A stretch of 58,510 nt of DNA from a virus (IMGVR_UViG_3300032087_002691:1-58510); one strand, 5' to 3'; shown: positions 3,093-49,363, counted from the stretch's first letter. Notes: generated by a model from the letters alone, not told the origin. Program-made: numbers and translations.

Positions 3093-3100
3093 TATATTTG
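3093..3100 (+). promoter_or_regulatory. Bacteroidota housekeeping-sigma -7 element TATATTTG, leaderless geometry
   Basis: TAnnTTTG followed by 4 nt and ATG 3105. Confidence 0.75.
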
Positions 3101-3104
3101 CATT

Positions 3105-16945: not shown

Positions 16946-16977
16946 ATCGTTGAGTAGCTATTCATATCTTTGTTTCT

Positions 16978-19900: not shown

Positions 19901-22900
19901 CAATAGCACAAATAAAAGAGCTGCAAAATCAGTACAGCCAGGCGGAATCAAGGACAGAAAGAGCGGCTATAGGTAGAAAAATTGTTGACGCTGTAGCGGC
20001 TCACACAAAGAATACAGAAAGACGCCAGGCTCTTATGGAATATCTGGCTGAGACTGATGACGCTAAATTCAACGAACTCGTTAATATTCATAATGAGGTT
20101 GAGGTTTTAGCGGAAGAATACTCTAGGTCTGATACCAAGAGAAGGAGGGAAATAAATAAAGAATTAAAATCTCTGCTGAATCGAAGGGCAGACATCGAAG
20201 GAGAATTAGACTCAGCCCTACAGACGGACGCAGCTTTAGAGGCTAGGGTACTAGGCAGGGAGGCCAAGAAAGCAGGTGAGAGGAGAAGAGATTACGGGGG
20301 GTTGTTTGAAAAGGGAACGGGAAAAATTACAGTAGATAAAAGCAACCTTGGTGCAGTAGCTAAAATCATTGAGAAGCTCACAAAACTTGATGTAAGCCCA
20401 TATAGCATTATGACTGAGGATGGCCGTGCTGTCGCGGCTACAACAGGAGAAAGGATTGTTAAGGGTATGCAAAACGCCTTAAACGTGGTCAGGGCACTGT
20501 CATCGCTTGGGGATTTTGCTATAGAGATGTATCGTGATTACGACACCTACATCAATGACCTTATGGAGGAAGGTAGTGTTGTCGACGAGGCTACGGGTGA
20601 GACTCGTAAGATGACGAGAGAAGAGGCTCAAAATGCTGCTGGTAGAGGAATGTGGACTGGCTCTGGAAAGATTAAGCTGTTCTTGCCAGCGATGCTTGAG
20701 AACACCGCTTATCACGAAGGGTATCACGACTTTGTTCTTCAGACGGTTGGAGAAAAGGCGGCAATAGGATTAGCTAAAAAACTATTTCAAGCCCTCCCTA
20801 AAAACCTAGTACAGAAGTACGGTAGCTTCTTAAGCTCCTATGGCTCTGGGATGGGCAATCTTGTTAAGATACTTGAAAACAAGAATGTTAGCGACGCCGA
20901 CAAGCGTCAAGCTGCAGATGAATTCCTTATGGAATTTTTGTCTGACCTGTCTGCTGGAAACGTTTCTATTGAAGTCCAGAAGGGGATTATTCGACAGTTT
21001 ATGGACTTCTTGGCTCCACACCTTGGTCGGATTGGAATTAAGGGTATACCAGACGCTAAGATTTCCGACGTAGTGAAAGCCATCAATCAGCTAACATCTG
21101 AAGTAGCTGAAGGTAAAAGGCTTGAAGGCCAAAAGGCTTTGTCTACTGCCGTAGCTAGAGCTGGATACGCAACGATGACAGCAAAGATGGGTATCAGCGT
21201 CGATGATGAAATTGAAGAAGGCTACGACCAGGCAAAGGCGCAAGCCATGACGTCTAAAGATTCCGACGAGAGCGGTAAAAAGATTGACGCCACCCTTATG
21301 TTCCTAGTCGGCAAGTCAAGAGTAAGCGGTAGATATCCTATTAGAAAGAGCTTCAACAGCAACCAGCACATAGAGAACTTCATTAACTATATGGAGGAGA
21401 GGAAAGGCTGGGTGTTTGATGAGATGTTCATCAATAAAGGTGAGTACGAGGGTAGGGAGTTCTCAACAGACGAACCCGCTGTGCAGCCACCAAAACCAAA
21501 GGCTACTCTAGTGCCTACGGATTCTGATATATACAGTGTTCAAGCATACGACTTTGAGGGCTTTGTGGAGATTATGGATAAGGCTCTTGAGAAGAGAAAG
21601 GAGCTTAGCATGAACCTCGGAATTCAAGTAGACCCGTTGACCGTAGAGGATATAAAACAAATCAAAGAGGAGGGCGGTGTTTTGTATATGACCATAGACA
21701 ATAAGGCTGGCGCCTATATCAAGCGCGATGGTTATATGGGCGGCTTGTTTAAGGACCCTGACTCAAGCTACCGCTCTGTAGCTAAGGCTATGCAAGACAA
21801 GCGCAACGGCCTCGCTAAGAATTCTTGGGGCATGAAGTCTGCGTTCATGAGCTCGTATGCTACAGACCTTGAGAGGCAGTATGTTGAGAATGGATGGAAG
21901 CCTGTAGCTAGGGTAGAGTTTAATCCAGATTATGCACCAGAGGGGTGGGATGCAGAAAACTCGCCGTTGATTAATAAGCCAGACATCGTATTCTACGTCG
22001 AGGGCAAAGGAGAAGTGGGCGGAGGTAAGATGATGGATAGCTATGACGAAGCTTATTCAGCAGCAAGAGACCTTGCTCAAAAGGACAGCCCAGCATCTAA
22101 GGCTCAAGCTATGCCAGACGCCTCGCTGCAAGAGGATGCTACCGTCTCTTTTGAGGATGCTTCAGGCATCACTCCTGCTATGCTGTCCAGTAGAGCGGGC
22201 GAGCTTAAGCTACCTGAATCTCAAAGACAAAAAAGAAATAAGGTTGTTACAGGTGTTCTCAACAAGTATGAGCTTGGCGAGATTAATCAAGAGCAATATA
22301 TCGCTGCTGTTCGAGAGAACATGCCAATCAAGGCTTTCGACGAGGTTCCAGAGATTCCTAGTCTATTAGACGTTGCCGCATCCCTTAAAACAAATCAAGT
22401 TAATAAGGGTATTATTGGCTCAAATAAGCAGGTGGAAGACGGTTATTACGTCGGTCTTAGGCTTGATGTTCCAGCATATAACGAGTATGACACATGGGTG
22501 GTGTCTGTACACCAGGGCAAAAAAGCAGAAGCTAGGACTCCCTACCTAGGAGGTAAGACTATCGGATATGGTCAGACAGGGGTCATCACAAATGTCACCT
22601 TTGATTCAACACCTGTAGCGGCACTTAATATCGCAAGAAGCAAGGGTAAAACGACTATTGCCCGCATGTTTGGAGACTGGAGAAATGAAGACCCTAAGTC
22701 TGTGCGTGAACGTGCGATGGCAATCATGGAGGGACCAGAATACAATTCTGACTACAAGGAAATTGGTAAGATGGACGGATGGATTCAGGTTGGTATGAAT
22801 CCGTTCAGGCACAGCTGGTTCTACGACAAGCGAGATGGCCGTCCGATTGCAGAGGCGTCTGAAGTTATTCAAATTGGGGCTCTTGTACTTGCCAAGGATG

Positions 22901-25900
22901 CGGTTAAGATTTCTGAATCTGATGAAAGGTTTAACGCTAAGAGCGCTGTCAGCGGCAAGACTATTAAGTTTCAACGTCCAGGCTCTATTGTCGACGATGT
23001 TAACAGTCTAGCTAAGACTGATAAGGTTGGCATCTTTGACTTCGAGTACTCTGCCAACACCTCTCAAATGGATGAGTGGATAAAGTCTGGGGTGGTAAGG
23101 CAGGAGGAGATGTCGTTTATCGAGGGTATGGATGTCTTGGCGCACTCACCAGACAACATGATGGTTGGTAGCGTGTCTGTTGGCGATAGAGTTATTGCAG
23201 AAAACGGAGGAGGCTTGTTCTATTCTGCTAGAACTGGCGACGTGTGGGCTGTAGCTGGTGAGAGTACTGGTAGAAACATGGCTAAGGAGCTCAATGAACT
23301 TCGCTCAAAATCTGAAAATGGTAAGGCATACATAGTTCTTATTAGTGGCAGCAGGGTGAAGCACGTAAGCTCTACTGGCGGTGTTATGTCATTTGCCGCT
23401 ATTGGATTTGAGATGGTTGAACAAGGCATCATCACTAAGTCTGAACTAAAGGAGGTGCTTAGGCAAACCATTAAGGAAACAGAAGTAATATCTGAAAAGG
23501 CTCAGATAAGTGCTAATGAGGCAAGGGTTAAAGATGGTAAAAAGCCCAAGCCAATAAGGAAGGGTGTTAGAACGCTAAGCGACCTCACGGGTACAATGCA
23601 AGCATTGTTTGACCGTTTCTATGTTGAGTTTGCTTCCCCATATCAATCTACTTTTGAGCAGAGGAAAGCCTTTGTAGATAGATTTGCCACCAATCTAGGC
23701 GCCTTGGTTAAAAGAAAGGCCGACATGGGCGATGCTGAGTCAACGGGCCTAAAGGAAGCCTACAAAAAAATGTTTGGTATTTCAAACATGAATACGAACC
23801 AATTTGGCAGCACCATTAAGAACTTCTTCTTCGACAACTTCCAAGAAAAAATCTTGCAGGGTGGCCAGAAGGGTGAAATATATGCAGCTATTGAGGTATC
23901 ATCTGACGTAGAGCTTGTAACGGACCCAGACCCAACAGCGTCTTACCCACTTAAACTCGTCAACACGGACCCCGATGCTCCAGCTCCAAAGACAATAGTC
24001 TTTAAAACAATGCGCCGAGTTGACGGCTCTATGATTTCTCGTAGCTCAAGAGCTATGGGTAAGCAGGTGGGTGATACATACATAAACAGCAAGGGTAAGA
24101 AGGCAACTATAACAACCACTGTCTTTGAGGCTATGAGTGGGCAGGGCGTCACCTCGTGGGGGCGCATGACTATGAAGGCTCCAGTACCAGTAGACGCTAT
24201 CGCTAGAGAGGTGGTGAGCATGACTGAGACCCGCACCATTGGTGTTCGCGCCAAGGCCCAGGGTAATATCATGAAGATGCTTGCTGATGCGATTGATTCA
24301 ACAATGCCTACTCCAACCATAGAGGTTAGACGTGGTAAGCTTATCATAAACTCTTCTAGGGCAGAGCTTTGGAATAGGAGCAGAGATGAGATTGTTGACA
24401 TGCTTGTGGCTAGTGGTATGAGCAAGGAGAATGCCGTGGCACTGTATAAACAAGCTAAAGCCTACAAGCAAGGCAGGTTGGCGGGTAAAAACGCCGCCGA
24501 CAAGAATGCCCGCAACACCTTAGGTAAAAGAAACAGGGAGCTTAGCTCTGAAGCTAAATCTTTAAAGAAAGAACTTCGTGAGCTTACTCAAAAGTCAGAA
24601 ACTGTTGATGAGTTCTTGACGTTCGCCATCGCCCTCATTGATGAGCGCATGAAGGATAGGGGTAAGCAGCCGTTCTCAAAGAGAGAAATACAGCGGTTCT
24701 TTAAAATTGTTCGTCAGGCACATAGGTCGTCTTCAAAACGTATAGCTAAGGATGGAGGGGCTGAAGTGATGGACTCGTTTGTCGAAAAGATTATTGACAT
24801 CTTTGATAAGCAGGATGCGCAACAGGCCATGAGGGATTACATGGCTTCAATTAGCGCAGCAAGAAAGCTTCAAGACAGAATTGCTAAGCTGACTAAGAGA
24901 CGTAAAAGAAACGAGTCTCTTAAGTCTATAGGTTCATACGTAGAGGTCTTGAGAAGGCTTGCTGATATCAATCCAGCGATGTTGTCTCCAACAGACGTTA
25001 TGGATTTTATTAAGACTTTGAACGCTGCTGTAACTTCCGTATCAAAAGTTAAGACTGAGTTTGACGCTGAGGAAGAGAGAGTTGTTGGGGTGGCTCCAAA
25101 TCGCACCTCGGTAGCAGCATTAACGGCCATGGCCAATGACTTCAGGGCTCTCGAAGAGATTGGACGTAATGCCAGAATGGTGGCTAAAGCCGAGGCGGCT
25201 GCACAGAAAAACGGAACCGAGTTTGAGGAGGAGTATTCAAAGCTTATCAAGGCAGAGAGGCTTAAGCAGGTTAGCTCAACCAGAAAAGCTGTTCTTAAAT
25301 ACATCGAGGACAACCCTCGTGAAAACCTAGACGCATCCAATCCAGCCGACCTGGAGTATATCCTAGAACAGCTGGCTGAAAATAAAGCCCTACTTGAGGA
25401 GCAGTCAAAAGAAGCTATTATCAATGATGTGCTTCTCCCCATGATTGCTTTCAACCTTGATAGGCTGCTTGCCGATGAGCATATAGCAGAAATACTGGGT
25501 GTATACTGGGCATTTGATTATGACGTCAACGCTCTTTCTCGGCGACTTTCAAAGCTTGACAAGGTGACACTCGCCAGTATTGAGTTTAAGCTTGACGACT
25601 ACCTGATGAACGACTCTACGATGGGTCTAGGTACTGTAGCTGCTAGGGTCAAGGGTAAGATAGATTATGCCGACGGCATTAAATCAAACTTGCTAGATAA
25701 GGGCATTGTTGCAACAGGCAAGCCACTTCTTGCTGCTCTTGACACCGTAGACTCTCTTATTAGATTCATGTTCAAAACAGACTCTAAGACCATAGCTAAG
25801 ATTAGAGTTCTTATTGGTTTTGCCGCTATTGAGAGGTCGTTTGCTAAGGCTGATATGATTCATGCCATGACAGCGGACGCCATCTCCGATAAGATGAATG

Positions 25901-28620
25901 AGATTGAGGGTAAGAGATATTGGAAGCGCAAGAAGGGTAGTGTAAGCACTGTGTACGACAATGCTATCATGCAGATATTCTCTATGGCTAGGCAGATGCC
26001 AGTCCTTGAGGAGGGTGTCGAAGGTCAGAACGCTGCTGATTGGTTCTTAGCCCTTAGAGATGTTATGCTCAGAACGATTGAGCACAACGAGCAGCAGAAG
26101 GACGTATACTCTAAAAAAGATATAGCTGAGATGCGTCGGGCATATGAATTTCTGTTTGAAAATTTCGATGAAGATTTGCCAGCTAGTCTTGACAACCTCA
26201 TGGGTAGAGTCGGTGTCTTTAGACCTGACCTTGTTGAGATGGTTGACTTTATGGTTGACATCCACTCCACTATGGAGGATATCTTCGCTAACTACGTAGA
26301 GAGGTATCTCGGTAAGACGTTGGTTAGAGAATCTCAATACACACCGTTCAGCGTCATGTCTAAGATGGAGCAATCCGCTGTTGATGATGCAGCGCAGCTT
26401 AGACAAGCGATGATGGAGGGGATGAGAACAGCAGCCCTGTCTAATGTAAAAAAGACAGCGGGCTCGTCATACGAAAGAAACCCAAAGAGTATATCTAGTA
26501 AGTCTAACATCATTGGTCTAAACTTCCTTAGTATCAATGAAAGAACGCTGAGAGAGAATACAATATTGTCTTACACTATCGGGGATGTAATGGCTTTGCA
26601 GTCAGCATTCTCTAGTGAAGAGATGACACAGCTCATCCCAGACAACGGAAGAAGAAATAGACTGCATCAAAAACTAATGCAGTATATATCTCAAGATATT
26701 GGGTCGGCACCATCGGTGTTTAAATCTAGATTTATTGTCAATGAAAGGGTTCCGTTCCTCGGCGGCAGGAGATTTAGAAACCCACTGCAAACGATAAGGA
26801 TTGCCACTATAGTAAGAGCATTTGGTGGGGTGTTTGTACAGACGCTCAAGCAGAGTACTGTTCTTGTTAGTGTCATTGGAAACATGAAAAACCCAATGCA
26901 GTCCATTCCGTATTTGCTTCAAACGTGGGCTGAGATTTGGGCATACGCGGCCAGAACTGGCGGGTTTAAGGATTCTAAACTAACCCTTGAGGCTAATGGT
27001 AGATATCGACTATTGCAAAACTCTCCTGTCTTTTCGAGAGACTATGAGGCTGGTAACATCGACCCCTACACAGGCTCTATCGAAACCGAAACAAGTTGGT
27101 TTGTAAGAACGAGAGATAAGCTCGCTTCTTTGGCTCTTAAGAACTTGAAGTCAACGGATAAGGCTGCAGCTATTGCATCATGGTTCGCATACTATGCTGA
27201 CTTCATGGTCTCAGAGAGTCTCGCCGAAAGCGTATGGGATATTGACTGGGAAGCTGAGGCGAACAATCCAAACGCAGAGGCGTTGAGCTATGCTGACACT
27301 ATGGTTTCAAAAGACCAAGCAGCATCTACTGCTAGACAGGCAGCCGATGTGTACAAAGATGGTCGTGGATTTGCTGGTGCGGTGACTGCATTTGCTAGAA
27401 ACATTATTCTTCCATTTGCCAGACACACCATTAATAAAAAACGAGCTATAGGTTCTGACGCAAGTAAGCTTCTATTTGGAAGAGACAAGAAAGCTAGGAG
27501 AGAGGGAGGTAAGAACATGGTGTTCCACATCGCGGAGCTAACAGCTTTCCAAGCTATAGGATATATTCTTCTACCAGCCTTAACTCAGTATGTAATGGGC
27601 CTCTTGGGTTATGACGACGAGGAAAAAGAGTCTGAATACAAAGACAACCCGTGGATGCGCGTGGGTGGCGGCGTGGTAAAGGACTTAGTGCCGCTTCCTC
27701 CTATGGGATACACTGACGACTTGATAACCGAAAACATAAACAGGTACTTCCTGTTCCCTATAGATTCTGGCATGGGGTGGACAGATGATGGCTATGATGA
27801 TGGCTACGAGGCATGGAAGAACACATCTCCAAACGCCTTGCCTACATACCAAAGAAAATCAGACCTCTCCGCCAAGGGTGCTTTAAACCTTATGCTTGGA
27901 CCGTATGGCCAGTTTGTAACTGACGCATACTACACGTATCAAAACCTTAACAACCCAGATAACAAGGTTATTTCTAAGTCAGGTAGAGAATACTACGTAA
28001 GGCCAGAAGATAAGGAGCAGATGGACACTCACTTTGCTTTAAGCTTCGTGTTGTTCATGACTCAAACGGCAGGGTTCTCATCAAAAGAACTTGACATGAT
28101 TGTCCGCAAGATGGATGACCTGCCTCGTGAAAGAGCCTTCTCGTCAGAGGAAGAACTCATGGGCTATGAGTATCAGATGGAGTGGCTGTTGGAGAACAGC
28201 GATGAGAACAAGCAGTTCTTGAAGTTCTTTGAGGGTGGAGAAGGTTCGGAAGATGTGGACGCTAGAATTGAACAATACCTCAATAGTATAGCCGATGACC
28301 CTGACTCATCTCCTCAAGAAGTCAAAAAGGCTTTGACCAAAATAAAAAAGGGAGCTAAGACTGCAGATGTGGAGTTCTATATGAAGCCTATGGAGGGTTA
28401 TTCAGAACACATCAGAGATATCAGGGGCATATACAGAAGCACATCCAACGCCAAGGAGTACGCTTCCGCTATCAACATCCGCAAGGAGATGATGAGCCCA
28501 GAAGAATTTGCTAACTTTAAGGCTCTATCCGATGTGTACATGTCCGCCATGAGTCCAGGTAGACTTGCTGAAAGCGAATACTATACTGCACACGGGTTGT
28601 CAGAAGACTTATCTAACTAA
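16978..28620 (+). CDS. Giant polyvalent virion protein (zincin MPTase, GNAT-like and unknown modules)
   Basis: 3880 aa. TAYHEGYH (HExxH) at 20713-20727 with a downstream DEFL. GNAT-like Y...GWKPVARVEFNPDYAPEGWD...PDIVF. Hydrophobic Gly/Ala segments near aa 780-960. Confidence 0.8.
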   Translation: METKEQFLERYNAAVAAGATQAELQAMIDEFEASEAGQKAREEYEYLNPPKEKVDEYLEFLNSDLQDEEYVNNYLTPSVPIHRGWMDMQTGDLKQDRDLDMSPAFVALQAYNYTSKEADVWHTSGGNIADKEFGSEMEDWYGKQFVEQNRTYNKGALDYKYDNNLSASENKYLEERHYQKLRYTAAMSPLGWADVAKDLTDDKKEELTSQIVTNLIEIDKAYNERLKNPDEYDDYMLTPEERSEFLDKQLDYFSMLGVTLNDEAYDDFQKEYKRLNDYRKKELLDKFSLSELSNKIEERHLAKKRVNIDSWDSEYVELYGLQKYKLSNMVPEAVPSTTLPFLFSPSKKSSVPTQENRIVFSPNKEYDFGDKTISGEEAMLLQEVGIAQQEGLERFVRAHFSQTYYYKALHLIGGLPSQGNNDPASWFKPDSKLDANRQDLIDVITEKINSDSPSEQHEGWFMLFLGSGGEHKNPEFTGFSAETDEERIIHLLNAFSNSNDTQLFKAFRNGFDGGEGFTYEPEGIMAIDRGVSVPEAMAQSLFPDEMFHFGFEAYVGGVGSLFSGKDLHDKAGQLTVFANQLENVYPDIREKGISAIPDWSYKITKSGRTDREHFQETMTRIRWEGISGLEDMAVENIKTRAYAYASEYMGPKLRRTLGKDYSQSKLREFEQKLYREYDTPADLTGDGYYNENKEGWDGFTEAFGGEFGRAWRQSWDGMATLTENTLVLADIMPEYRAKSNQRARQRGIDAITKELRVSTRSLSDKFNSGDFTGWITDVGTQTGGSIPMMGAALVTGFVTRGNSKAVAVVTSAMGAASVYSQNKDTEWFKNLSGAEATGFVLSSGIAEGLPALVGAKIFSGQGFLAKRLASTPMGKAVMSGSGKQGFLGWTRGLIIGAGLGATEEALTEGVTAGWQYTAERWAKNQAGEYATWNYDDWWAAVKEGALAGLGMGGVFSGTGTLVRTVSTKSLGSLRTIAQIKELQNQYSQAESRTERAAIGRKIVDAVAAHTKNTERRQALMEYLAETDDAKFNELVNIHNEVEVLAEEYSRSDTKRRREINKELKSLLNRRADIEGELDSALQTDAALEARVLGREAKKAGERRRDYGGLFEKGTGKITVDKSNLGAVAKIIEKLTKLDVSPYSIMTEDGRAVAATTGERIVKGMQNALNVVRALSSLGDFAIEMYRDYDTYINDLMEEGSVVDEATGETRKMTREEAQNAAGRGMWTGSGKIKLFLPAMLENTAYHEGYHDFVLQTVGEKAAIGLAKKLFQALPKNLVQKYGSFLSSYGSGMGNLVKILENKNVSDADKRQAADEFLMEFLSDLSAGNVSIEVQKGIIRQFMDFLAPHLGRIGIKGIPDAKISDVVKAINQLTSEVAEGKRLEGQKALSTAVARAGYATMTAKMGISVDDEIEEGYDQAKAQAMTSKDSDESGKKIDATLMFLVGKSRVSGRYPIRKSFNSNQHIENFINYMEERKGWVFDEMFINKGEYEGREFSTDEPAVQPPKPKATLVPTDSDIYSVQAYDFEGFVEIMDKALEKRKELSMNLGIQVDPLTVEDIKQIKEEGGVLYMTIDNKAGAYIKRDGYMGGLFKDPDSSYRSVAKAMQDKRNGLAKNSWGMKSAFMSSYATDLERQYVENGWKPVARVEFNPDYAPEGWDAENSPLINKPDIVFYVEGKGEVGGGKMMDSYDEAYSAARDLAQKDSPASKAQAMPDASLQEDATVSFEDASGITPAMLSSRAGELKLPESQRQKRNKVVTGVLNKYELGEINQEQYIAAVRENMPIKAFDEVPEIPSLLDVAASLKTNQVNKGIIGSNKQVEDGYYVGLRLDVPAYNEYDTWVVSVHQGKKAEARTPYLGGKTIGYGQTGVITNVTFDSTPVAALNIARSKGKTTIARMFGDWRNEDPKSVRERAMAIMEGPEYNSDYKEIGKMDGWIQVGMNPFRHSWFYDKRDGRPIAEASEVIQIGALVLAKDAVKISESDERFNAKSAVSGKTIKFQRPGSIVDDVNSLAKTDKVGIFDFEYSANTSQMDEWIKSGVVRQEEMSFIEGMDVLAHSPDNMMVGSVSVGDRVIAENGGGLFYSARTGDVWAVAGESTGRNMAKELNELRSKSENGKAYIVLISGSRVKHVSSTGGVMSFAAIGFEMVEQGIITKSELKEVLRQTIKETEVISEKAQISANEARVKDGKKPKPIRKGVRTLSDLTGTMQALFDRFYVEFASPYQSTFEQRKAFVDRFATNLGALVKRKADMGDAESTGLKEAYKKMFGISNMNTNQFGSTIKNFFFDNFQEKILQGGQKGEIYAAIEVSSDVELVTDPDPTASYPLKLVNTDPDAPAPKTIVFKTMRRVDGSMISRSSRAMGKQVGDTYINSKGKKATITTTVFEAMSGQGVTSWGRMTMKAPVPVDAIAREVVSMTETRTIGVRAKAQGNIMKMLADAIDSTMPTPTIEVRRGKLIINSSRAELWNRSRDEIVDMLVASGMSKENAVALYKQAKAYKQGRLAGKNAADKNARNTLGKRNRELSSEAKSLKKELRELTQKSETVDEFLTFAIALIDERMKDRGKQPFSKREIQRFFKIVRQAHRSSSKRIAKDGGAEVMDSFVEKIIDIFDKQDAQQAMRDYMASISAARKLQDRIAKLTKRRKRNESLKSIGSYVEVLRRLADINPAMLSPTDVMDFIKTLNAAVTSVSKVKTEFDAEEERVVGVAPNRTSVAALTAMANDFRALEEIGRNARMVAKAEAAAQKNGTEFEEEYSKLIKAERLKQVSSTRKAVLKYIEDNPRENLDASNPADLEYILEQLAENKALLEEQSKEAIINDVLLPMIAFNLDRLLADEHIAEILGVYWAFDYDVNALSRRLSKLDKVTLASIEFKLDDYLMNDSTMGLGTVAARVKGKIDYADGIKSNLLDKGIVATGKPLLAALDTVDSLIRFMFKTDSKTIAKIRVLIGFAAIERSFAKADMIHAMTADAISDKMNEIEGKRYWKRKKGSVSTVYDNAIMQIFSMARQMPVLEEGVEGQNAADWFLALRDVMLRTIEHNEQQKDVYSKKDIAEMRRAYEFLFENFDEDLPASLDNLMGRVGVFRPDLVEMVDFMVDIHSTMEDIFANYVERYLGKTLVRESQYTPFSVMSKMEQSAVDDAAQLRQAMMEGMRTAALSNVKKTAGSSYERNPKSISSKSNIIGLNFLSINERTLRENTILSYTIGDVMALQSAFSSEEMTQLIPDNGRRNRLHQKLMQYISQDIGSAPSVFKSRFIVNERVPFLGGRRFRNPLQTIRIATIVRAFGGVFVQTLKQSTVLVSVIGNMKNPMQSIPYLLQTWAEIWAYAARTGGFKDSKLTLEANGRYRLLQNSPVFSRDYEAGNIDPYTGSIETETSWFVRTRDKLASLALKNLKSTDKAAAIASWFAYYADFMVSESLAESVWDIDWEAEANNPNAEALSYADTMVSKDQAASTARQAADVYKDGRGFAGAVTAFARNIILPFARHTINKKRAIGSDASKLLFGRDKKARREGGKNMVFHIAELTAFQAIGYILLPALTQYVMGLLGYDDEEKESEYKDNPWMRVGGGVVKDLVPLPPMGYTDDLITENINRYFLFPIDSGMGWTDDGYDDGYEAWKNTSPNALPTYQRKSDLSAKGALNLMLGPYGQFVTDAYYTYQNLNNPDNKVISKSGREYYVRPEDKEQMDTHFALSFVLFMTQTAGFSSKELDMIVRKMDDLPRERAFSSEEELMGYEYQMEWLLENSDENKQFLKFFEGGEGSEDVDARIEQYLNSIADDPDSSPQEVKKALTKIKKGAKTADVEFYMKPMEGYSEHIRDIRGIYRSTSNAKEYASAINIRKEMMSPEEFANFKALSDVYMSAMSPGRLAESEYYTAHGLSEDLSN

Positions 28621-28627
28621 GATTTAA

Positions 28628-29104
28628 ATGAAACTAGAAGTATTAAGATTTAGTAGCCAGAAAGACTCAACATCTGGCGCATTGTTTGACATTACTAACG
28701 GCAGGAAATTCCTGTGCTACACACTTGAAGATGAGAAAAGAGATGAAAAAGTTATGGGGGAGACTCGTATCCCCAGCGGAACGTATAGAGTTACGTTACG
28801 AACAGTGGGGGGCCACCACAGCAAGTATTCCCACCGCTTTAAGGATATTCATAAAGGCATGCTCTGGGTTCGTGACGTTCCTAATTTTGAGTATATACTT
28901 ATTCATTGTGGGAACACTGATGAGCACACTGCTGGTTGCCTTCTGGTTGGAGAAACACAGTCGTCCAATATTAAAGAACCTAACGGCTTTATTGGAAGGT
29001 CCACGCAAGCGTATTTCGACGTTTATCCAAGGATTGCGGACGCGCTTGAAGCTGGGGAAGAAGTAACCATCACTTACATAGACTACGATGGAGAAGAAGA
29101 TTAA
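28628..29104 (+). CDS. DUF5675-type putative endolysin (L,D-transpeptidase-like)
   Basis: CYTLED...IP.GTY...ILIH.GN...HTAGCLLVG motif, next to the holin. Confidence 0.8.
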   Translation: MKLEVLRFSSQKDSTSGALFDITNGRKFLCYTLEDEKRDEKVMGETRIPSGTYRVTLRTVGGHHSKYSHRFKDIHKGMLWVRDVPNFEYILIHCGNTDEHTAGCLLVGETQSSNIKEPNGFIGRSTQAYFDVYPRIADALEAGEEVTITYIDYDGEED

Positions 29105-29522
29105 GGATACTGGCTTAGGTAAGTGGCTCAAAGACAAGGCGCCAACGATACTTGATACGGTAGGCGAGCTGTTGCCTGATAAGGGCGGACTTGGTGTTGT
29201 AAAGAACCTGCTGGACAAGGACCCCAACATCAATCAAGACGAAGCTAAAGCCAGGATAGATGCTGAGATAGCATTTCAAGACAACGTAACGGAAAGATGG
29301 AAGGCTGATATGGGTAGCGATATCAAGCTCGCTAAGTACATCAGACCAGTTACACTCATCGCTCTTATGGCCATGTTCGTGCTCACGATGATAGCGGATT
29401 CCCTTGATAACTGGCCCTTTAACGTCAAGGACAGTTATGTATCTTTGTTAGAGATACTAATGCTAACATCATTCGGTGCATACTTCGCTGGAAGAACCAT
29501 CGAAAAAGCTAGGACTAAATGA
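29088..29522 (+). CDS. Holin (3TM/GTA-holin-like)
   Basis: RW.ADM.SD..LAK.IRP, hydrophobic helices, GAYF.GRT.EK. Confidence 0.8.
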   Translation: MEKKIKDTGLGKWLKDKAPTILDTVGELLPDKGGLGVVKNLLDKDPNINQDEAKARIDAEIAFQDNVTERWKADMGSDIKLAKYIRPVTLIALMAMFVLTMIADSLDNWPFNVKDSYVSLLEILMLTSFGAYFAGRTIEKARTK

Positions 29523-29653
29523 GACACGAAGAAGATTTTGACGTAAGCTTTCTTGACCAAGATAAACTCAAAGAGCAAGAGAAAAAGATTGAGTCAGGAG
29601 AGATTATCTGCAGCATTAAAAACCCTGAGGATTGTGAATCATGCAGCGGCTAA
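29519..29653 (+). CDS. 44-aa acidic peptide ending CSIKNPEDCESCSG
   Basis: Read manually. ATGA-coupled to the holin stop; not in the ORF track. Confidence 0.75.
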   Translation: MRHEEDFDVSFLDQDKLKEQEKKIESGEIICSIKNPEDCESCSG

Positions 29654-29715
29654 GGCTTACGTGGAAAAAGTTTATATGGGCACTCATACAGTTTAGCAAA
29701 CACAACTAGAAAGAC

Positions 29716-30003
29716 ATGGAGCTAGGAGAAAACACAAGAGTCACGCTTGATATAAAGACTATAGTTATCATCATTAGCTTTATTGTCACCTCTGTCGGGA
29801 TGTGGTATGCTATGAAGAGCGAGATTGAGCTCGCTAAAAAACTACCAGAACCAGAGATTGAGCGCACTGAATACGACCTCAAAGACCAACTCATAAGGGA
29901 AACTATTTTAAACACGCAGGAGCAAGTAGAAGCTAATGGCAAGAAACTAGACTTGATAGAGGGGCGGCTGTACGAACTCAGCACGGAAGCCAAAAGGAAA
30001 TGA
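29716..30003 (+). CDS. Single-TM coiled-coil membrane protein (lysis/spanin-like)
   Basis: TM segment IVIIISFIVTSVGMWY followed by a coiled coil, inside the lysis module. Confidence 0.6.
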   Translation: MELGENTRVTLDIKTIVIIISFIVTSVGMWYAMKSEIELAKKLPEPEIERTEYDLKDQLIRETILNTQEQVEANGKKLDLIEGRLYELSTEAKRK

Positions 30004-30386
30004 ACAAGACTATTGCAATAATCGCAATCGGGGCAAGCCTGGCGGGCGCTGGAGCCGTATCCAAGGTCAGCAACAAACCAACATCTGAACCTATAGAGAC
30101 TTCGGTTGAAGAAAACGTTGAATCAGACATCGTTGTTATCCAGATAAACGCGGACTGGAATAGGAGTAATACTAGGAGTGATTTGAGAGCACTTAGAGGC
30201 TGCGACTACAGATTTGCTTGGCTTGAGGACCAGCCATACGAGCTTAGAAAAACCATAACTTCCGTTCCTGTTGTCGTCATTTACGCTGATGACAGACCAG
30301 CGTATCAATATGCTGCTGGTATTAGCCTATCGCTTGACACTCCGTTTGAGGAGATACAGAATAAGGTTTACGAATTATCTGAGTAA
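30000..30386 (+). CDS. Exported thioredoxin-fold protein lacking CxxC
   Basis: Signal/anchor sequence. VIQINADWN at the WCxxC position and ITSVPVVVIY cis-Pro motif. Confidence 0.6.
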   Translation: MNKTIAIIAIGASLAGAGAVSKVSNKPTSEPIETSVEENVESDIVVIQINADWNRSNTRSDLRALRGCDYRFAWLEDQPYELRKTITSVPVVVIYADDRPAYQYAAGISLSLDTPFEEIQNKVYELSE

Positions 30387-31046
30387 CAGCACACTTCCTG
30401 AGGATACTATATTCTCTTCTGACTCCCCGTGTAATGTCCACACGTAGACACCCTGAGAGGCCCCGACTCCGTTCCAGCATACAGACCTGAGTAGGTCTCC
30501 GATAAAGACTAGGTTGCCCCACCTGTCATATATCCTATACTCTAGCTTATCCCAGCAGTAGCTATCTGCTATTGGACAAAAGAGGTCATTAACACCATCA
30601 TCGTTAGGTGTGAAATAGCTAGGCATATACACGTTGTAATCGCATCCCTCACAAGACATTCCAGTCACGCAATCAACAGTTGATATTGACAGCACGGTAT
30701 CTGGAGACAGCTGGATATATTCAAATACCTCAACCGTGTCTGCAGGCAACTGCACATACACCGTATCACATGATGCTATCGGCGGCTCAAGAACACCGCA
30801 TTTCCACGCCACCCACGCGGCCCATATACCATCTACTCCATGGTAGTAGTCGCAAAGCAGTTCCCCAACTTCGTATGGCGTCGTGCAATCAAGACAAGAC
30901 CCGTCGTCAACCGTAGCCTCGTCGTTGTAGTTGCAAGAGTTAGGCCACATGCACCCATATATAACGGGTACTTCAACATAAACTGTATCTGCCTGAGCAA
31001 CAGCTATAAGTGGCATCATAAATAGCGCTATCAAAGTCTTTCTCAT
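30375..31046 (-). CDS. Cys-rich secreted protein with a T9SS type-B (gliding-motility/CHU_C) C-terminal domain
   Basis: Signal peptide ending AVA-Q, GCM...CNYN.EATVDDGSC repeat unit, C-terminal MPSYFTPNDDGVNDLF...IYDRWG.LVF...WNG...GVYVW...G.V.LLR. Confidence 0.88.
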   Translation of the reverse strand: MRKTLIALFMMPLIAVAQADTVYVEVPVIYGCMWPNSCNYNDEATVDDGSCLDCTTPYEVGELLCDYYHGVDGIWAAWVAWKCGVLEPPIASCDTVYVQLPADTVEVFEYIQLSPDTVLSISTVDCVTGMSCEGCDYNVYMPSYFTPNDDGVNDLFCPIADSYCWDKLEYRIYDRWGNLVFIGDLLRSVCWNGVGASQGVYVWTLHGESEENIVSSGSVLLLR

Positions 31047-31050
31047 AGCG

Positions 31051-31058
31051 CAAAGATA
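31051..31058 (-). promoter_or_regulatory. TATCTTTG -7 element, leaderless geometry, for the T9SS-cargo gene
   Basis: Minus strand reads TATCTTTG-CGCT-ATG(31046). Confidence 0.75.
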
Positions 31059-31064
31059 CCCTTA

Positions 31065-31271
31065 TTAGTCGTTCTGTTTTTTTATGTGCTCGTAGAACTC
31101 TGAGTCAATCTGCTTGATGGGGTGGATGAACTCCCTGTTGCAGTGCCTATTTATTTCCTTGTGCCTAGCCTTGCTATTCGTGATGCAGTTGTTGGCTGCC
31201 TGATAGGATGCGTTGGCCTTGAGAAGCGCGTCTATCTGCTTTCTCTTTTCTGGGTCTGTATAGTATGTCAT
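31065..31271 (-). CDS. Hypothetical protein
   Basis: Likely start MTYYTDP, coupled to the upstream stop. Confidence 0.6.
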   Translation of the reverse strand: MTYYTDPEKRKQIDALLKANASYQAANNCITNSKARHKEINRHCNREFIHPIKQIDSEFYEHIKKQND

Positions 31272-31771
31272 GATTCGTAATCTTTGAGGTAAGCCCAAAC
31301 CCTGTACGAGCTTATTGACCTGAGGTCTTTTAGGGTTATTCTTGTTACAACATCCGCCCTACCCTTTCTAGAATATCTCTTCCGATAGGCTTGACTCTTC
31401 TCGTCTACAGCGGTGTCGTCTATGTTTTTTTCACACCATTTAACAAGCTCGTCTCTGTTTACCACAGAGAAACCACCCTCTTCGGGCATGTCAAATGCGA
31501 TGATACTTGCCATCCCATACATCCATCCTCTCTCTCCTTTAACGTTCTTGAACTCGCACCATATCTCGTCGGGCAGGTTGTTACCCTTGACGTCTACTGA
31601 ATACTTCTTGCCGCTGTGGTGTAGCCAGAAGTCAATGTGGTGATGAATATCTTCTTTACTTCTGGACTTGTCGACCCTGAAGCCAAGGCTTTCTGCTGCT
31701 CTTTTAAATCTCACCTCAGCAACACGGCCTGTTGAGTTAGAATATTCTCGACGCTTGTTGCTTATAGTCAT
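31268..31771 (-). CDS. PD-(D/E)xK family nuclease
   Basis: G..AE..F...HIDF...VDVKG catalytic pattern. Confidence 0.7.
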   Translation of the reverse strand: MTISNKRREYSNSTGRVAEVRFKRAAESLGFRVDKSRSKEDIHHHIDFWLHHSGKKYSVDVKGNNLPDEIWCEFKNVKGERGWMYGMASIIAFDMPEEGGFSVVNRDELVKWCEKNIDDTAVDEKSQAYRKRYSRKGRADVVTRITLKDLRSISSYRVWAYLKDYES

Positions 31772-32298
31772 GACCTTAGTTCAATCTTACTAATGTATCC
31801 GTTGTGAATTTTATTGTCCTCCACAACGTTTTCTGGTGCCAACCACCCCTCTGCGTTATCGTCCCCGCTCGTGCTGCAAGGGACCTTTCTAAAGGACTTG
31901 TCTTCACACCAAGAGATAAGGGGCTCAAGATAAAACACATGAGCGTAATCGCCTAGATGCCTGCCGTCTATGTCGGTATGCTTCATGATATACACAAAGA
32001 CATCGGCCTGACCGAGGCTTGAGTACAGACCACACCTCTCGTTCCTAGTCGTGCTCCAGCATTCAAGAAAGAGGTTGGGTGATTGCTGCCACGCTCTGTT
32101 GTGGCAATACATCCACGCCTTCTGGTCGTACTTGACTTCGAAGCGCATGCCGTTCTCTATCTCAAGGTCCCAGTACATGAGGTCGTCACCACGAATGGCG
32201 TCAGACCTAACTACAGTATGGTCCCTGCCTACGAGGTAGTCCTCCCACATCCTCTCCCCCTCCTTGCCATGAGCTAATGAACCTTTAAACTTGCTCAT
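31768..32298 (-). CDS. PD-(D/E)xK family nuclease
   Basis: GKEGE...WDL...FEVKYD...NLFLE pattern. Confidence 0.7.
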   Translation of the reverse strand: MSKFKGSLAHGKEGERMWEDYLVGRDHTVVRSDAIRGDDLMYWDLEIENGMRFEVKYDQKAWMYCHNRAWQQSPNLFLECWSTTRNERCGLYSSLGQADVFVYIMKHTDIDGRHLGDYAHVFYLEPLISWCEDKSFRKVPCSTSGDDNAEGWLAPENVVEDNKIHNGYISKIELRS

Positions 32299-32500
32299 TA
32301 TGCTCTTCGCATGCCGTCGTCACGGTATCTAGCTCGACGTTTATCTTGTTCTTAAACGACCTTACGAGGTCTAGGATTTCAATCCAGTTGGTTTTGGGCT
32401 CCCCGCTATGCGTATGCAATGCTTCGTACAGCTCAGTAGCCTCGCGCTGGATGTTGCTTGTGGATGAGAAGTAAATCTCACTTAGAATTTTTGAGTTCAC
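32285..32500 (-). CDS. Hypothetical protein
   Basis: 71-aa ORF packed between neighbours in the operon. Confidence 0.6.
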   Translation of the reverse strand: MNSKILSEIYFSSTSNIQREATELYEALHTHSGEPKTNWIEILDLVRSFKNKINVELDTVTTACEEHNEQV

Positions 32501-32957
32501 GACAGATTGTTTGGATGGTTTCGTCTACTTGTTTCTTGTTCTTAGGTATGAAAAGCATGTAGTCCTCCATACCATTGTCAACCAGATACTTAAGGAACAT
32601 CTTCCAGCGCAGTGGGAAGGTGTGCTGCGATGGCACGTAGCCCTTTGTCTCTATGATGAACTTATTCTTGTGCGACACAAAGTCTGGGGTGTATTTCACC
32701 TGCAGAACTGCGTTGCCTGTGGCGTTCATCAAATAGTCTTTCGACTTGGTTGACTTATAGTAGACGCCTGGATACCTGAATCCGTCCTGTATAACGAATG
32801 TCTCCCCCTCGTATACGAAATCGATATCGAACTCTTTGAGTTGGTCGTAGCAGTATGTCTCAAGGTTAGACTTCAACTGCTTACCATCCCTCCTGAGATT
32901 CCTGGTCTTGGCGGTCTTTTTTCTTGGGCGCGTGAGGTTTTTTCTAGCCTTCCTCAT
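32478..32957 (-). CDS. T7 endonuclease I-like Holliday junction resolvase
   Basis: KS.LE...YE...YTPDF...IIETKG. Start placed at MRKARK. Confidence 0.85.
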   Translation of the reverse strand: MRKARKNLTRPRKKTAKTRNLRRDGKQLKSNLETYCYDQLKEFDIDFVYEGETFVIQDGFRYPGVYYKSTKSKDYLMNATGNAVLQVKYTPDFVSHKNKFIIETKGYVPSQHTFPLRWKMFLKYLVDNGMEDYMLFIPKNKKQVDETIQTICRELKNSK

Positions 32958-32970
32958 GATGCCCAAAAGT

Positions 32971-34776
32971 TTACAAAATATCCTGATGCATTGCAACCTG
33001 TTTACCAACAAGTTGTTCACCCAGTGGGTTAAAAAAGTCTTGGACAGGACCCTCTAAGTAGAACGCGCTGTGCGTCTGGTTGAACCTGAAGTATAGCGGC
33101 TCAGCAAATGGCGTAGGCTGCCCGCCTGTATCTGTCTCCCTGACCTTTCGTATATGCATCTCTGTCGTGAAACGTATGTTGGGGTCAATGTGCTGGACCT
33201 TTCTGTGCAGGGTGATGAAGCAGTCAGCCCTGTTCACCCACTTGCCACCACCCTCTGTGTCTTCAGCGTATGGCGCCCTAGGGTATCCGTCTTGGTCCTT
33301 CTGTCTCTGAGACTCAGTGACGCTATGAGCGTTCACCCATACAGCCACACCTAGCCTGTTGCTGAACGTCAGGAAGTCTGATGCCGCCTCGTAGTGGTAC
33401 TCGTGTGAGTTGAGGTGCTTGCCCTTCATGCCGTCGATACGAAGGCTGTTGTAGGGGTCGATGAACAGCCCGTCAATAGGTCTATTCCTATGAATCTTCT
33501 CCGCATATAGGAGCACGTCGGTATAGCTAAGCACCTCGTCGTTTTTGATGACAACAAAGTGGTCCTTCACCCACTGGTATGCTCTCTTCTGCTCCTGAAA
33601 GTTCATGCTCTGTATGTGCTTGTTCAAGCAGAACTGCATGAGCTTCATCTTGATAGCCGCTGTAGTGTTCTCCGCGCTGTATATAACCCATCGCCAATCG
33701 TGGTTCATGCTTGCGCTGACCATCAGGAATAGGGTGAACGTAGTCTTACCTATGTTGCTGTGTCCGTTTATCATGACGAACTCCTTCTTAAATCTGAAGT
33801 TGTCATCAACTCTGGTGTTGCCTGTAGACAGACCGACCTCGATGTTGCCCTCTCTGTATCTGTCAATCCAGTTAAAGTCAGCGTCGTCTGAGGAGACGAA
33901 AGACATGTCGCCATCCTGCAGTAGAATCTCTCTGTTAATCTTCTCCTCGTCCTCAATAATCTCCTTGATGGGCATGGTCTTGCCATGAGCAATGCCGTCT
34001 TTGATGGTACGCTTTGCCAGCTCAAGGTCATCTACGTCGTGCTTCTCTATCTCACGATTTAAAACGTACAGAGCTACCTCCTCCTCAATCCTACCCGCCG
34101 CAACGTAACCACCTATGAGGTGAGCCGCTCGGATAAGAACGCTATGCTTCTCCCCATCGCTGGCCCTGTTAATCATACGTGCAGCTATGTTGAGCTTCTC
34201 GTAGTCCGTCTTGGACTGGATGTCGAGGACGTAGTTGTCGTTACGATTCTCCCCAATCATACCAGTAAATACATCTGCGCTCTCTCGCACCACGATGTCT
34301 GGGTCACATGACTCAAAGCATGCGCGTGATTCATTGATGCCAGTAGAGTCTACCTCCAATCCATACTGGCTGTCAAAGTACTTCTGCAGGCTACGGAAGT
34401 GGTCTCGGTGGCGCGATGGTTCAGACACCTCAACCAAAGCCTTGATGCCGTTACCACTGGGGCTAACCCAACAGCTGCGAACATACTTATCTGAACCTAT
34501 GACAGACTTAGCTCTGTCTACATCAACGTGGTCAAAGTCTAATACGATTAACCCGCTGTGTCTCTTTAACTCGTCATCCTTCCTGCCACTAAACTCGCCA
34601 GAGAAAAGAACGATAGGAAGCTTGGTCTTCTCTGACTTGTCACCCCCTCGAATCTTATCAATCCTCGTTGTGTGTTTCCCCTCCCTTATACGTTGAAGTG
34701 CAGTTTCCAAGCGGATATAGGTCGGCTCCTGTACTTGATGTATGGAAGGGAATATGGTTACTACGGGGTTGCTCAT
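32971..34776 (-). CDS. Primase-helicase (BT4734/VirE-N-like primase domain plus DnaB/RecA-like helicase)
   Basis: K..LP...FSG.F, SG.I.LDFDH, SPSG.G.K. Walker A GHSNIGKT, Walker B FIDPYN. Confidence 0.88.
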   Translation of the reverse strand: MSNPVVTIFPSIHQVQEPTYIRLETALQRIREGKHTTRIDKIRGGDKSEKTKLPIVLFSGEFSGRKDDELKRHSGLIVLDFDHVDVDRAKSVIGSDKYVRSCWVSPSGNGIKALVEVSEPSRHRDHFRSLQKYFDSQYGLEVDSTGINESRACFESCDPDIVVRESADVFTGMIGENRNDNYVLDIQSKTDYEKLNIAARMINRASDGEKHSVLIRAAHLIGGYVAAGRIEEEVALYVLNREIEKHDVDDLELAKRTIKDGIAHGKTMPIKEIIEDEEKINREILLQDGDMSFVSSDDADFNWIDRYREGNIEVGLSTGNTRVDDNFRFKKEFVMINGHSNIGKTTFTLFLMVSASMNHDWRWVIYSAENTTAAIKMKLMQFCLNKHIQSMNFQEQKRAYQWVKDHFVVIKNDEVLSYTDVLLYAEKIHRNRPIDGLFIDPYNSLRIDGMKGKHLNSHEYHYEAASDFLTFSNRLGVAVWVNAHSVTESQRQKDQDGYPRAPYAEDTEGGGKWVNRADCFITLHRKVQHIDPNIRFTTEMHIRKVRETDTGGQPTPFAEPLYFRFNQTHSAFYLEGPVQDFFNPLGEQLVGKQVAMHQDIL

Positions 34777-35617: not shown

Positions 35618-35635
35618 TAGTTTACTTGCTGTTTG

Positions 35636-35709
35636 TACCCCCGACAGGATTCGAACCTGTGACCGTTTGCTTAGAAGGCAAATGCTCTATCCAGCTGAGC
35701 TACGAGGGC
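35636..35709 (-). tRNA. tRNA-Arg(UCU)
   Basis: GCCCTCG-TA-GCTCAGCTGGATAGAGC-A-TTTGC-CTTCTAA-GCAAA-CGGTC-ACAGG-TTCGAAT-CCTGT-CGGGGGT-A canonical cloverleaf. No encoded CCA. Confidence 0.97.
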
Positions 35710-44217: not shown

Positions 44218-44230
44218 CTATATTTGCACC

Positions 44231-45287: not shown

Positions 45288-45302
45288 TATTATATTTGCC
45301 GT

Positions 45303-48713: not shown

Positions 48714-48739
48714 AACGACGGCAGATTTTGGATATTGTG
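48714..48739 (-). promoter_or_regulatory. Early-type promoter CACAATA-N15-CGTT outside the early arm
   Basis: GCACAATATCC...CGTTATA, matching the copy at 43193-43219. Confidence 0.75.
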
Positions 48740-48754
48740 CAAACTAGTGTTAAA

Positions 48755-49363
48755 ATGGAATTTAACAGACGCAGACCAAAGATGTACTACTCGTTCTCAG
48801 ATGGCGGTGTAGTTGATATGACTATAGGTGTCGCCTCACCAAACTATGAGGAAAGCGATGGTGGACCGATAGACTTGCAGGAGATGATTAGAAGACAGAT
48901 GGCTGCGGAGTCGTCACTTATCCCAGGACAGAAGTCTCACGCTGGCGCCGTAGGTCTAGCTCAGTTTACGCCCATAGCTCAGAAGGAGGTGGTGAGGCTA
49001 GGTATCATGGGCGAGGGCTGGAACCCTGAAGACCCTACTCAGGCGAGGGATGCTATGACTGGATACATGGAGTATCTGTACGACAGGCCGTGGGTCAACG
49101 CCGAGAACAGCGACCCTATGGTTGCGTGGGCCAAAGCGCTGTATGCTTATAACGCAGGAACTGGTACGGCGGTCAAAAGCCTCAACGAGCTAAAGGAAAA
49201 GGGATACGATATCTACAACAGTCTCGACTGGATTAATGAAATCAACGACGAGAGCCGTGGCTATATAGAGAAGGTCAACTTCATGGATACCGAGGCGGGC
49301 CGTCAGTTCCAAAGTGACTGGCCTACTTATGAGAAGCGCTGGACGCAGATTTACGGGGAGTAA
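48755..49363 (+). CDS. Lytic transglycosylase (SLT family)
   Basis: AAESS...SHAGAVGLAQF.P...AYNAG...ESRGYIEKV. Start (48755 or 48782) is uncertain. Confidence 0.9.
   Translation: MEFNRRRPKMYYSFSDGGVVDMTIGVASPNYEESDGGPIDLQEMIRRQMAAESSLIPGQKSHAGAVGLAQFTPIAQKEVVRLGIMGEGWNPEDPTQARDAMTGYMEYLYDRPWVNAENSDPMVAWAKALYAYNAGTGTAVKSLNELKEKGYDIYNSLDWINEINDESRGYIEKVNFMDTEAGRQFQSDWPTYEKRWTQIYGE

Follow-up and report, generated by a model that had tools for sequence, protein, structure and literature searches.

The stretch of DNA that was analysed (hereafter the window) is an entire IMG/VR virus record of 58,510 bases, which is rated 98% complete. A single ORF on its minus strand, at 30375..31046, encodes a product of 223 amino acids that is built of four parts: a Sec signal peptide ending in AVA before a Gln, a Cys-rich unit with a two-helix extension, a set of DTVY spacers and a C-terminal CHU_C domain (Table 1). 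The original prediction had described this ORF as phage-encoded cargo for the host's type IX secretion system (T9SS), and every sequence element that it listed can be read in the translation, far beyond what would be expected by chance. The end coordinate given there, 31058, is explained by the inclusion of the TATCTTTG box that lies upstream of the ATG.

Table 1. Features at the cargo locus, with positions counted from the first base of the window.
Feature	Position	Strand	Residues	Remarks
TATCTTTG box of the TAnnTTTG type	31051..31058	(-)		Candidate own promoter; 4-nt gap to the ATG
Sec signal peptide	30993..31046	(-)	1-18	MRKTLIALFMMPLIAVAQ; read by eye from the translation
Cys-rich unit of ~25 aa	30885..30962	(-)	29-54	IYGCMWPNSCNYNDEATVDDGSCLDC; invariant in 8/8 aligned homologues
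Two-helix, Trp-rich extension of the Cys unit	30768..30884	(-)	55-93	Starts TTPYEVGELLCDYYHGVDGIWAAWVAWKCG; nearly invariant in alignment A1
DTVY/DTxY spacer (linker)	30636..30767	(-)	94-137	Length differs among homologues
Type-B T9SS C-terminal sorting domain (CHU_C)	30378..30635	(-)	138-223	PF13585, TIGR04131
Tail-to-tail overlap, 12 bp	30375..30386			Convergent with lysis-arm gene 30000..30386 (+)

The signal peptide reads MRKTLIALFMMPLIAVA and is followed by Q18, such that the predicted cleavage would leave Gln18 as the mature N-terminus. This Gln at position +1 is kept in all six of the homologues whose N-terminus is complete (alignment A1), as expected from the proposal of a Sec signal that ends before Gln. 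The mature protein would start with QAD, compared with QCD in the wider family described below. A first DTVYV motif stands at residues 20-24, ahead of the Cys-rich unit, whose core is YGCMWPNSCNYNDEATVDDGSC (residues 30-51), and of the Trp-rich stretch TTPYEVGELLCDYYHGVDGIWAAWVAWKCG (residues 55-84). The motif recurs at residues 94-98, and further DTV repeats (ADTVEV, PDTVLS) are found within the spacer, where P0005-P0008 carry inserted DTxY repeats that amount to about 50 residues at most (alignment A1).

The surrounding genome is arranged in two arms. By PHROGs and Pfam matches, the rightward arm encodes virion structural proteins, a DUF5675 protein and a holin, along with a protein of 1829 aa whose C-terminal domain is of the crAss-type muzzle kind and a 3880-aa ORF; the leftward arm encodes a primase/helicase, an exonuclease and an Erf-type annealing protein; and the terminase and portal genes lie at the right end of the window. 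These matches bear out the claim that the ORF is a phage gene. It stands last in the leftward (replication) arm and adjoins a lysis cassette at 28628..30386, which consists of the DUF5675 protein, the holin and two small membrane/signal proteins. Among the ORFs scanned, which left some small ORFs aside, there was no integrase. The cargo gene itself has no PHROGs family, and a blastn search of 28000..34000 against 50,697 phage records returned no match.

The portal protein matches 87 phage records, all at <= 31% identity, from phages of Flavobacterium (68), Cellulophaga (15), Tenacibaculum (2) and Maribacter (1) and from one unassigned member of the Caudoviricetes. Because 86 of these 87 cultured or deposited records thus come from phages of the Flavobacteriaceae, the host of the window phage is very probably a member of this family. 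Flavobacteriaceae have a T9SS and gliding motility. At least half of the sampled words of the stretch are present in each of 18 DNA runs from marine or seawater sources, and runs with any part of it come from nine studies.

The cargo gene was also predicted to have its own host-type promoter, and a TAnnTTTG box, which we take to be the -7 promoter element of Bacteroidota, does lie directly before its ATG. In the window as a whole this motif is no commoner than chance, with 36 occurrences compared with 35.1 in shuffled sequence. Nine of the 36 fall <= 32 nt upstream of one of 60 chosen gene starts, where a uniform density would place 0.46, and five of these nine, including that of the cargo gene, stand 4-5 nt from the ATG. 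The box is kept in the syntenic relative L002, in which a GC-rich hairpin and a T-run are followed by TATTTTTG-N4-ATG before the homologue. This arrangement speaks for a separate transcription unit under a Bacteroidota-type sigma factor, the mRNA of which would be leaderless or nearly so. An own promoter is not a rule in the wider family, since only six of 56 distinct upstream sequences contain the strict box, all six with a 4-nt gap. No intrinsic terminator was found at the 3' end of the cargo gene; a sigma-70 type scan made there is not relevant to Bacteroidota. One metatranscriptome run contains part of the stretch; it has no contig over the cargo gene and is uninformative on expression either way.

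The C-terminal domain contains the motifs FTPNDDGVND, IYDRWG, WNG and GVYVW, and it occupies the extreme C-terminus, ending at residue 219-223 of 223, behind the N-terminal Sec signal. Pfam CHU_C (PF13585) matched residues 141-219 over profile positions 3-84 of 86, with 41.8 bits against a gathering score of 27 (E = 1.2e-10), and a six-frame search of the whole record gave 43.8 bits. The NCBIfam type-B model TIGR04131 gave 33.2 bits (E = 4.3e-8), 1.8 bits below its curated cut-off of 35, over profile positions 3-54 of 85 only. The profile check proposed with the original prediction was therefore divided in outcome: CHU_C came out above its cut-off and TIGR04131 just under. Four of nine full-length family members pass the TIGR04131 cut-off (P0006, 41.0; P0007, 36.2; L003, 37.0; L004, 35.5 bits) and five fail it. 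On these scores the protein narrowly misses a stricter model, and the shortfall does not mark a different family. No type-A sorting domain (PF18962/TIGR04183) was matched at E <= 1 in Pfam or NCBIfam. The tail is thus supported as a type-B (CHU_C/TIGR04131-class) T9SS sorting domain by its CHU_C score and TIGR04131 E-value.

Structure prediction bears on this domain with less discrimination. The AlphaFold2 (AF2) model of the whole protein is poor over residues 1-133 (pLDDT < 50) and reaches pLDDT 62-90 over the C-terminal domain (CTD). Superposition of the CTD model on that of NucA, as solved in the translocon (8glk_D), gave Z 7.5 with an rmsd of 2.0 Å over 73 of 75 residues, and T9SS substrate CTDs in the translocon also gave Z 6.2 (8gl6_D) and Z 6.3 (8gl8_D). 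The value for the RemA CTD, as for that of RgpB, was Z 6.2, and unrelated, generic Ig-like sandwiches scored equally high (Z 6-7.7). A Foldseek search with the same model gave no match at E <= 1e-3.

The part of the protein ahead of the linker, here termed the stalk module or passenger, is far better conserved than the tag. A word-indexed search with the whole protein found 12 proteins, including six full-length relatives at 98-39% identity, all metagenomic. In alignment A1, residues 29-97 are almost invariant across eight homologues, while the sorting domain drifts. Codon by codon, the window gene and its L002 homologue differ in the passenger (residues 19-95) by a pN of 0.04 and a pS of 0.68, whereas pN rises to 0.21 in the linker, 0.28 in the sorting domain and 0.29 in the signal peptide, each with a pS of about 0.8. 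As synonymous sites are saturated in all regions of this comparison, the identity of the passengers reflects purifying selection and not recent exchange. No other part of the protein is as constrained as the stalk module, which is under strong purifying selection. Three DNA runs showed no insertions or deletions in the cargo gene, and of nine listed variants, beyond which further differences exist, seven are synonymous and two conservative.

A HMMER scan of residues 19-95 against 1.84 billion representatives matched, at E <= 1e-3, 3483 proteins, almost all of them large and made with repeats of the ~25-residue Cys unit; as many as 50 matched stretches were counted in a single protein. A Pfam scan of 12 of these proteins showed a type-A T9SS tail at the end of three, along with PKD or similar domains, and no Pfam model covers the repeat, either in these 12 or in the window protein. 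Modelled on its own (AF2, 29 aligned rows), the passenger reaches a mean pLDDT of 82.9 and consists of a short hairpin with two helices behind it, at passenger residues 40-51 and 56-64. When this model was compared with the PDB (VIA-align), none of 48,161 chains reached Z >= 2; in the ESM Atlas there was no usable match by features and all structural rows had TM < 0.4. A two-peptide-pattern scan of species-representative genomes gave 34 pattern matches and no confirmed relatives of the passenger, and there is a faint hint that the module is a phage-only form. Among phage records, tblastn with the window protein gave matches in no more than two phages, both huge and uncultured and both matched just over the tag, and tblastn with the L019 relative found three records, none cultured. 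A literature search on the literal motif 'DDGSC' gave nothing relevant.

The original prediction had also called for a survey of related phages. Scanning IMG/VR with the sorting-domain alignment yielded 218 viral loci, and the family counts given here are drawn from the best 80 of these. We define the family by a signal-Q(x)(C)D start, optional Cys units with a DTxY linker and a CHU_C end, in a genome that shares terminase, portal, holin or primase with the window; so defined, it includes the window protein. The CTD lies at the extreme C-terminus in 80 of the best 80 loci. Seventy-four of their ORFs are complete (median length 385 aa) and fall into 45 clusters at 90% identity, and in 61 of the 74 a Q(x)CD follows the hydrophobic stretch. 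All 12 family representatives pass the CHU_C cut-off, and in 11 the passenger is without any Pfam domain. Fifty-nine of the best 80 loci carry other genes in common with the window phage, with identities to the window of 70-77% for terminase, 57-63% for portal, 74-81% for holin and up to 89% for primase/helicase. Exactly one CHU_C gene is present in each of five complete relatives (5/5), as in the window. By these counts the cargo gene is a member of a large, lineage-wide family borne by phages.

The family gene occupies at least three genomic slots. Among the best 80 loci, it lies at the lysis/replication junction, as in the window, in 16, just upstream of the terminase in 20, and near an anti-restriction gene and a 936-aa ORF in seven; a further 21 have no shared neighbour in the fetched piece, and 16 have single or ambiguous neighbours.

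Most members of the family are larger than the window protein and differ from it at the N-terminus. Single linkage of the best-80 passengers placed 76 of 80 in one cluster with a head domain of ~180 aa; from the window protein's own family, the best 80 include only the L002 homologue (kept as L006), which lies outside the head cluster. The larger phage cargo proteins L003 (730 aa), L019 (333 aa) and L020 (400 aa) resemble the window protein in their signal-Q start, Cys units, DTxY linkers and CTD, but they carry an N-terminal 'QCD...QINxSQT' head of ~180 aa that the window protein lacks. L003 joins the two groups. The common head makes up its first ~195 residues, with 46% identity to L020, and over its last 263 residues (468-730) the window protein can be aligned from end to end, at 41% identity and with much greater conservation in the stalk module than elsewhere. 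In larger cargo proteins this module is kept at 68-78% identity. The window protein is therefore the family's stalk-linker-tag cassette, equipped with its own signal peptide and without a head. L019, together with L050 the closest relative by primase/helicase (87-89%), holds a headed allele in the same genomic slot as the window's cargo gene, as does L050, so heads are exchanged or lost between close relatives.

The original prediction had noted that no PorP/SprF-like partner was visible, and this was borne out: PorP_SprF (PF11751) had no match at E <= 1 in the whole 58.5-kb record and none at E <= 0.1 in the five complete relatives. Type-B substrates, according to one account, each have a dedicated carrier and stay bound to it at the cell surface (PMC12635249), and Porphyromonas gingivalis PG1035, a small type-B protein, is suggested in another to cap PorP (PMC9143113). 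Since the phage brings no carrier, we infer, purely by this reasoning, that the substrate would have to sit on a host carrier of the PorP/SprF type. Taking over such a carrier would be no trivial matter. Flavobacterial mutants in the T9SS or in gliding resist phages broadly, and SprB and RemA are regarded as probable phage receptors (PMC9804748).

Together we read these observations as follows. During infection the host RNA polymerase would transcribe the cargo gene, and the protein would cross the inner membrane through Sec and be cut before Gln18. SprA-type translocons would then carry it across the outer membrane, and it would end on a borrowed host carrier of the PorP/SprF type at the cell surface. 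Held there, it would show its conserved Cys/Trp module and take the carrier site of a host adhesin, from which either of two effects could follow: host adhesins might meet with competition, or a new module might be displayed at the surface. The likeliest pay-off would be a remodelled layer of T9SS-exported adhesins, which are thought to be the receptors of flavophages, and such a layer could exclude other phages or spare progeny from adsorbing to infected cells and debris. That the protein is exported as T9SS type-B cargo we consider likely from its sequence features. The fuller reading, a genuine phage-made type-B substrate that is held on a borrowed host carrier and remodels the adhesin layer, is the one we favour, with moderate confidence; that the pay-off is specifically exclusion seems doubtful. 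Phages of this group probably do plant a protein of their own on the surface of the infected cell.

More tentatively still, the findings on the family could be put in a broader form. Throughout a lineage of podophages of marine Flavobacteriia, the type-B branch of the T9SS may have been drawn into the infection programme, with each genome encoding one carrier-less cargo of swappable modules (head, Cys units, DTxY stalk and tag) that would load on host carriers of the SprF/PorP type, and possibly on the gliding track, and so rewrite the host surface. The headless form in the window would then be a naturally minimised one, in which the Cys/Trp module contacts the carrier or a partner at the surface. 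We offer this as a conjecture that may well prove too broad.

Other readings have to be weighed against the favoured one. In the original prediction the passenger was called tiny and the protein, for that reason, a possible decoy. In its pure form this would mean that the passenger is irrelevant and that the tag occupies PorP/SprF carriers or the SprA translocon and stops the export of host adhesins. Such a role would suit a protein that lacks the head found in most of its family and a phage group with no carrier encoded in the window or in the five complete relatives, and the capping suggested for the small PG1035 offers a parallel. A pure tag decoy should, however, be most conserved in its tag, and the reverse is seen: pN is 0.04 in the passenger and 0.28 in the tag, residues 29-97 are nearly invariant in eight homologues, and the same module is preserved as the stalk of larger cargo proteins. 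Because the passenger is both the most constrained part and this conserved stalk, function does not appear to reside in the tag alone; the module itself matters, the step from tiny passenger to decoy is not supported, and we consider a pure jammer improbable. The effects suggested along with it, namely superinfection exclusion, masking of a receptor or a change in gliding, are conjectural. The constraint on the module would equally suit a surface lectin or adhesin, whose Cys/Trp module binds a polysaccharide, a particle or a cell and alters aggregation or attachment rather than blocking receptors. The Cys unit is, after all, the repeat of thousands of large proteins, and three of the 12 that were scanned end in type-A T9SS tails, with PKD or similar domains. 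Against this, the passenger model has no PDB match at the threshold used, no Pfam family covers the module, and a single unit, compared with 6-50 in host proteins, suggests weak avidity, so that binding of this kind likewise seems improbable as the main role.

Position and fold suggest two further readings, both of lower probability. The cargo gene adjoins the lysis cassette, and its product could be an accessory to lysis, a protein of the periplasm or outer membrane that aids disruption of the outer membrane and whose CHU_C-like sandwich is merely structural. The gene lies, however, on the opposite strand in the replication arm, its other slots in the family are far from lysis genes (20 of the best 80 loci lie before the terminase and seven near the anti-restriction gene, against 16 at the junction), and the tail matches a sorting-domain family above the Pfam cut-off; we think a lysis role quite unlikely. 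Ig-like domains are common on phage particles, and the likeness of the CTD model to generic Ig sandwiches is as close as that to T9SS CTDs, which would be compatible with a virion or decoration protein with an Ig-like C-terminal domain. Yet the Sec signal, which is kept in the homologues with a complete N-terminus, would remove such a protein from the cytoplasm, where particles are assembled, no PHROG family is matched, and the gene is outside the structural module, which leaves a virion protein very improbable indeed.

The favoured reading, of a surface-held type-B substrate, has its nearest counterparts in bacteria. Like the type-B cargo of the SprB-SprF pair of Flavobacterium johnsoniae and the PG1035-PorP pair of P. 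gingivalis, the window protein combines a Sec signal with a CHU_C/TIGR04131-class domain at the C-terminus, and like PG1035 it is small and not a giant adhesin (PMC9143113). It differs from both pairs in being encoded by a phage, with no carrier gene adjoining it or elsewhere in the genome, in a TIGR04131 score slightly under the cut-off, and in a passenger that consists of a single Cys-rich unit and a helical extension.

Among phages, the T9SS tag and the idea of T9SS cargo are already known. In 'Cryophage' (Bellas et al., 2020; PMC7468147), type-A tags occur on variable enzyme genes, which that report calls a unique occurrence; the tagged genes differ between phage variants and are proposed there to hijack host secretion, possibly with effects on superinfection. 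ORFs with a T9SS sorting domain of unspecified type are mentioned for crAss-like cluster 2 in another study (de Jonge et al., 2019; PMC6949934). The window protein shares with both the origin of a T9SS sorting-domain product in a phage genome. However, the Cryophage tags are of type A, are carried by an endoglucanase, a GH39 protein and a PA14 protein and use the general carrier PorV, whereas the window protein is of type B and would need a dedicated carrier; it also has no enzyme domain and comes from a lineage-wide family with one member per genome. In the full-text literature that was searched, which covers few subscription journals, there was no published case of phage-encoded type-B cargo, only type-A or unspecified ones. 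A carrier-less type-B class, its one-per-genome spread through a phage lineage, its modular heads and a strongly selected headless form appear to be undescribed.

The Llp lipoprotein of phage T5 blocks the FhuA receptor after infection. The analogy with the proposed role of the window protein is functional only, in that a phage-made envelope protein inactivates the phage's own receptor; Llp is a lipoprotein and not a T9SS substrate. If the favoured reading is correct, a phage family that has the cargo and never the carrier would be a natural probe of carrier specificity and of the ways in which the display of adhesins is open to rewiring, and probably also an instance of surface remodelling by phages in the abundant marine Flavobacteriia. 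Adhesins exported as type-B cargo power gliding and are regarded as probable phage receptors. The cargo gene is short, modular and conserved, and the idea is therefore directly testable.

The module also has an interest of its own, as it demonstrates that a Cys-rich repeat of ~25 aa, unnamed and present in thousands of large proteins, exists in a stand-alone, strongly selected form. As a curiosity only, we note that a Foldseek search with the passenger gave just two weak rows, both perforin-2: with weak sequence support (E = 0.6, residues 331-363), the Cys unit superposes on 24 residues of perforin-2/MPEG-1 with an rmsd of 0.6 Å and 50% identity.

Most viral type-B cargo proteins, encoded at IMG/VR loci L007..L085, have in common a head domain of ~180 aa that starts with Q(x)CD directly after the signal peptide and contains the motifs HPGW and QINxSQT. 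This domain is unannotated and has no Pfam family. The Cys-rich unit (GC..., NYN..A..DDGSC) is widespread in bacteria, and its single look-alike lies in mammalian perforin-2/MPEG-1 (PDB 6u2k/6u23, residues 331-363 against residues 30-62 of P0001, the aligned window cargo protein), with 24 residues superposed at an rmsd of 0.6 A but with weak statistics (E 0.6 and 3.7).

Five window genes carry TAnnTTTG, a box presumably of the Bacteroidota -7 type, 4-5 nt ahead of the ATG, among them the cargo gene. This recurrent spacing hints that the phage regularly makes transcripts without a leader. The 3880-aa ORF, whose counterparts in the relatives L019 and L050 are ~60% identical, has TATCTTTG-N5 immediately ahead of its ATG.

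Features of the window and of its syntenic relative L002
Feature	Position	Strand	Remarks
1829-aa virion protein	8511..14000	+	PF25729 match
3880-aa ORF	16978..28620	+	no PHROG family match at E <= 1e-3
Putative lysis cassette	28628..30386	+
DUF5675 protein	within cassette	+	phrog_1501
Holin	within cassette	+	phrog_3427
44-aa ORF	within cassette	+
95-aa protein	within cassette	+	N-terminal membrane helix
128-aa protein	within cassette	+	N-terminal signal-like segment
Lysozyme-like protein	48728..49363		apart from cassette
TAnnTTTG + 4-5 nt spacer before ATG	3093..3104
TAnnTTTG + 4-5 nt spacer before ATG	16965..16977
TAnnTTTG + 4-5 nt spacer before ATG	31047..31058	-
TAnnTTTG + 4-5 nt spacer before ATG	44219..44230
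TAnnTTTG + 4-5 nt spacer before ATG	45291..45302
tRNA-Arg(TCT) gene	35635..35709	-	replication arm
B12-type ribonucleotide reductase, 630 aa	L002 7979..9871		directly upstream of L002 cargo gene

Residues 1611-1681 of the virion protein match PF25729, the C-terminal domain of the muzzle protein of crAss viruses, at 40.3 bits. The genome with this match is 58.5 kb long, and its portal is closest to those of podophages of the Cellulophaga phi38:1 type and the Flavobacterium 'elemo' group. Within the putative lysis cassette, the 95-aa and 128-aa proteins are both kept in relatives and may be stand-ins for spanins. L002 has its ribonucleotide reductase upstream of the cargo gene; the window has none at that place.

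Finally, short contigs from two marine DNA runs (X13, X18) heap to depths of hundreds at 29404..29511 and 31525..31625, with loose ends on both sides; these look like short conserved segments common to many other genomes in the samples.
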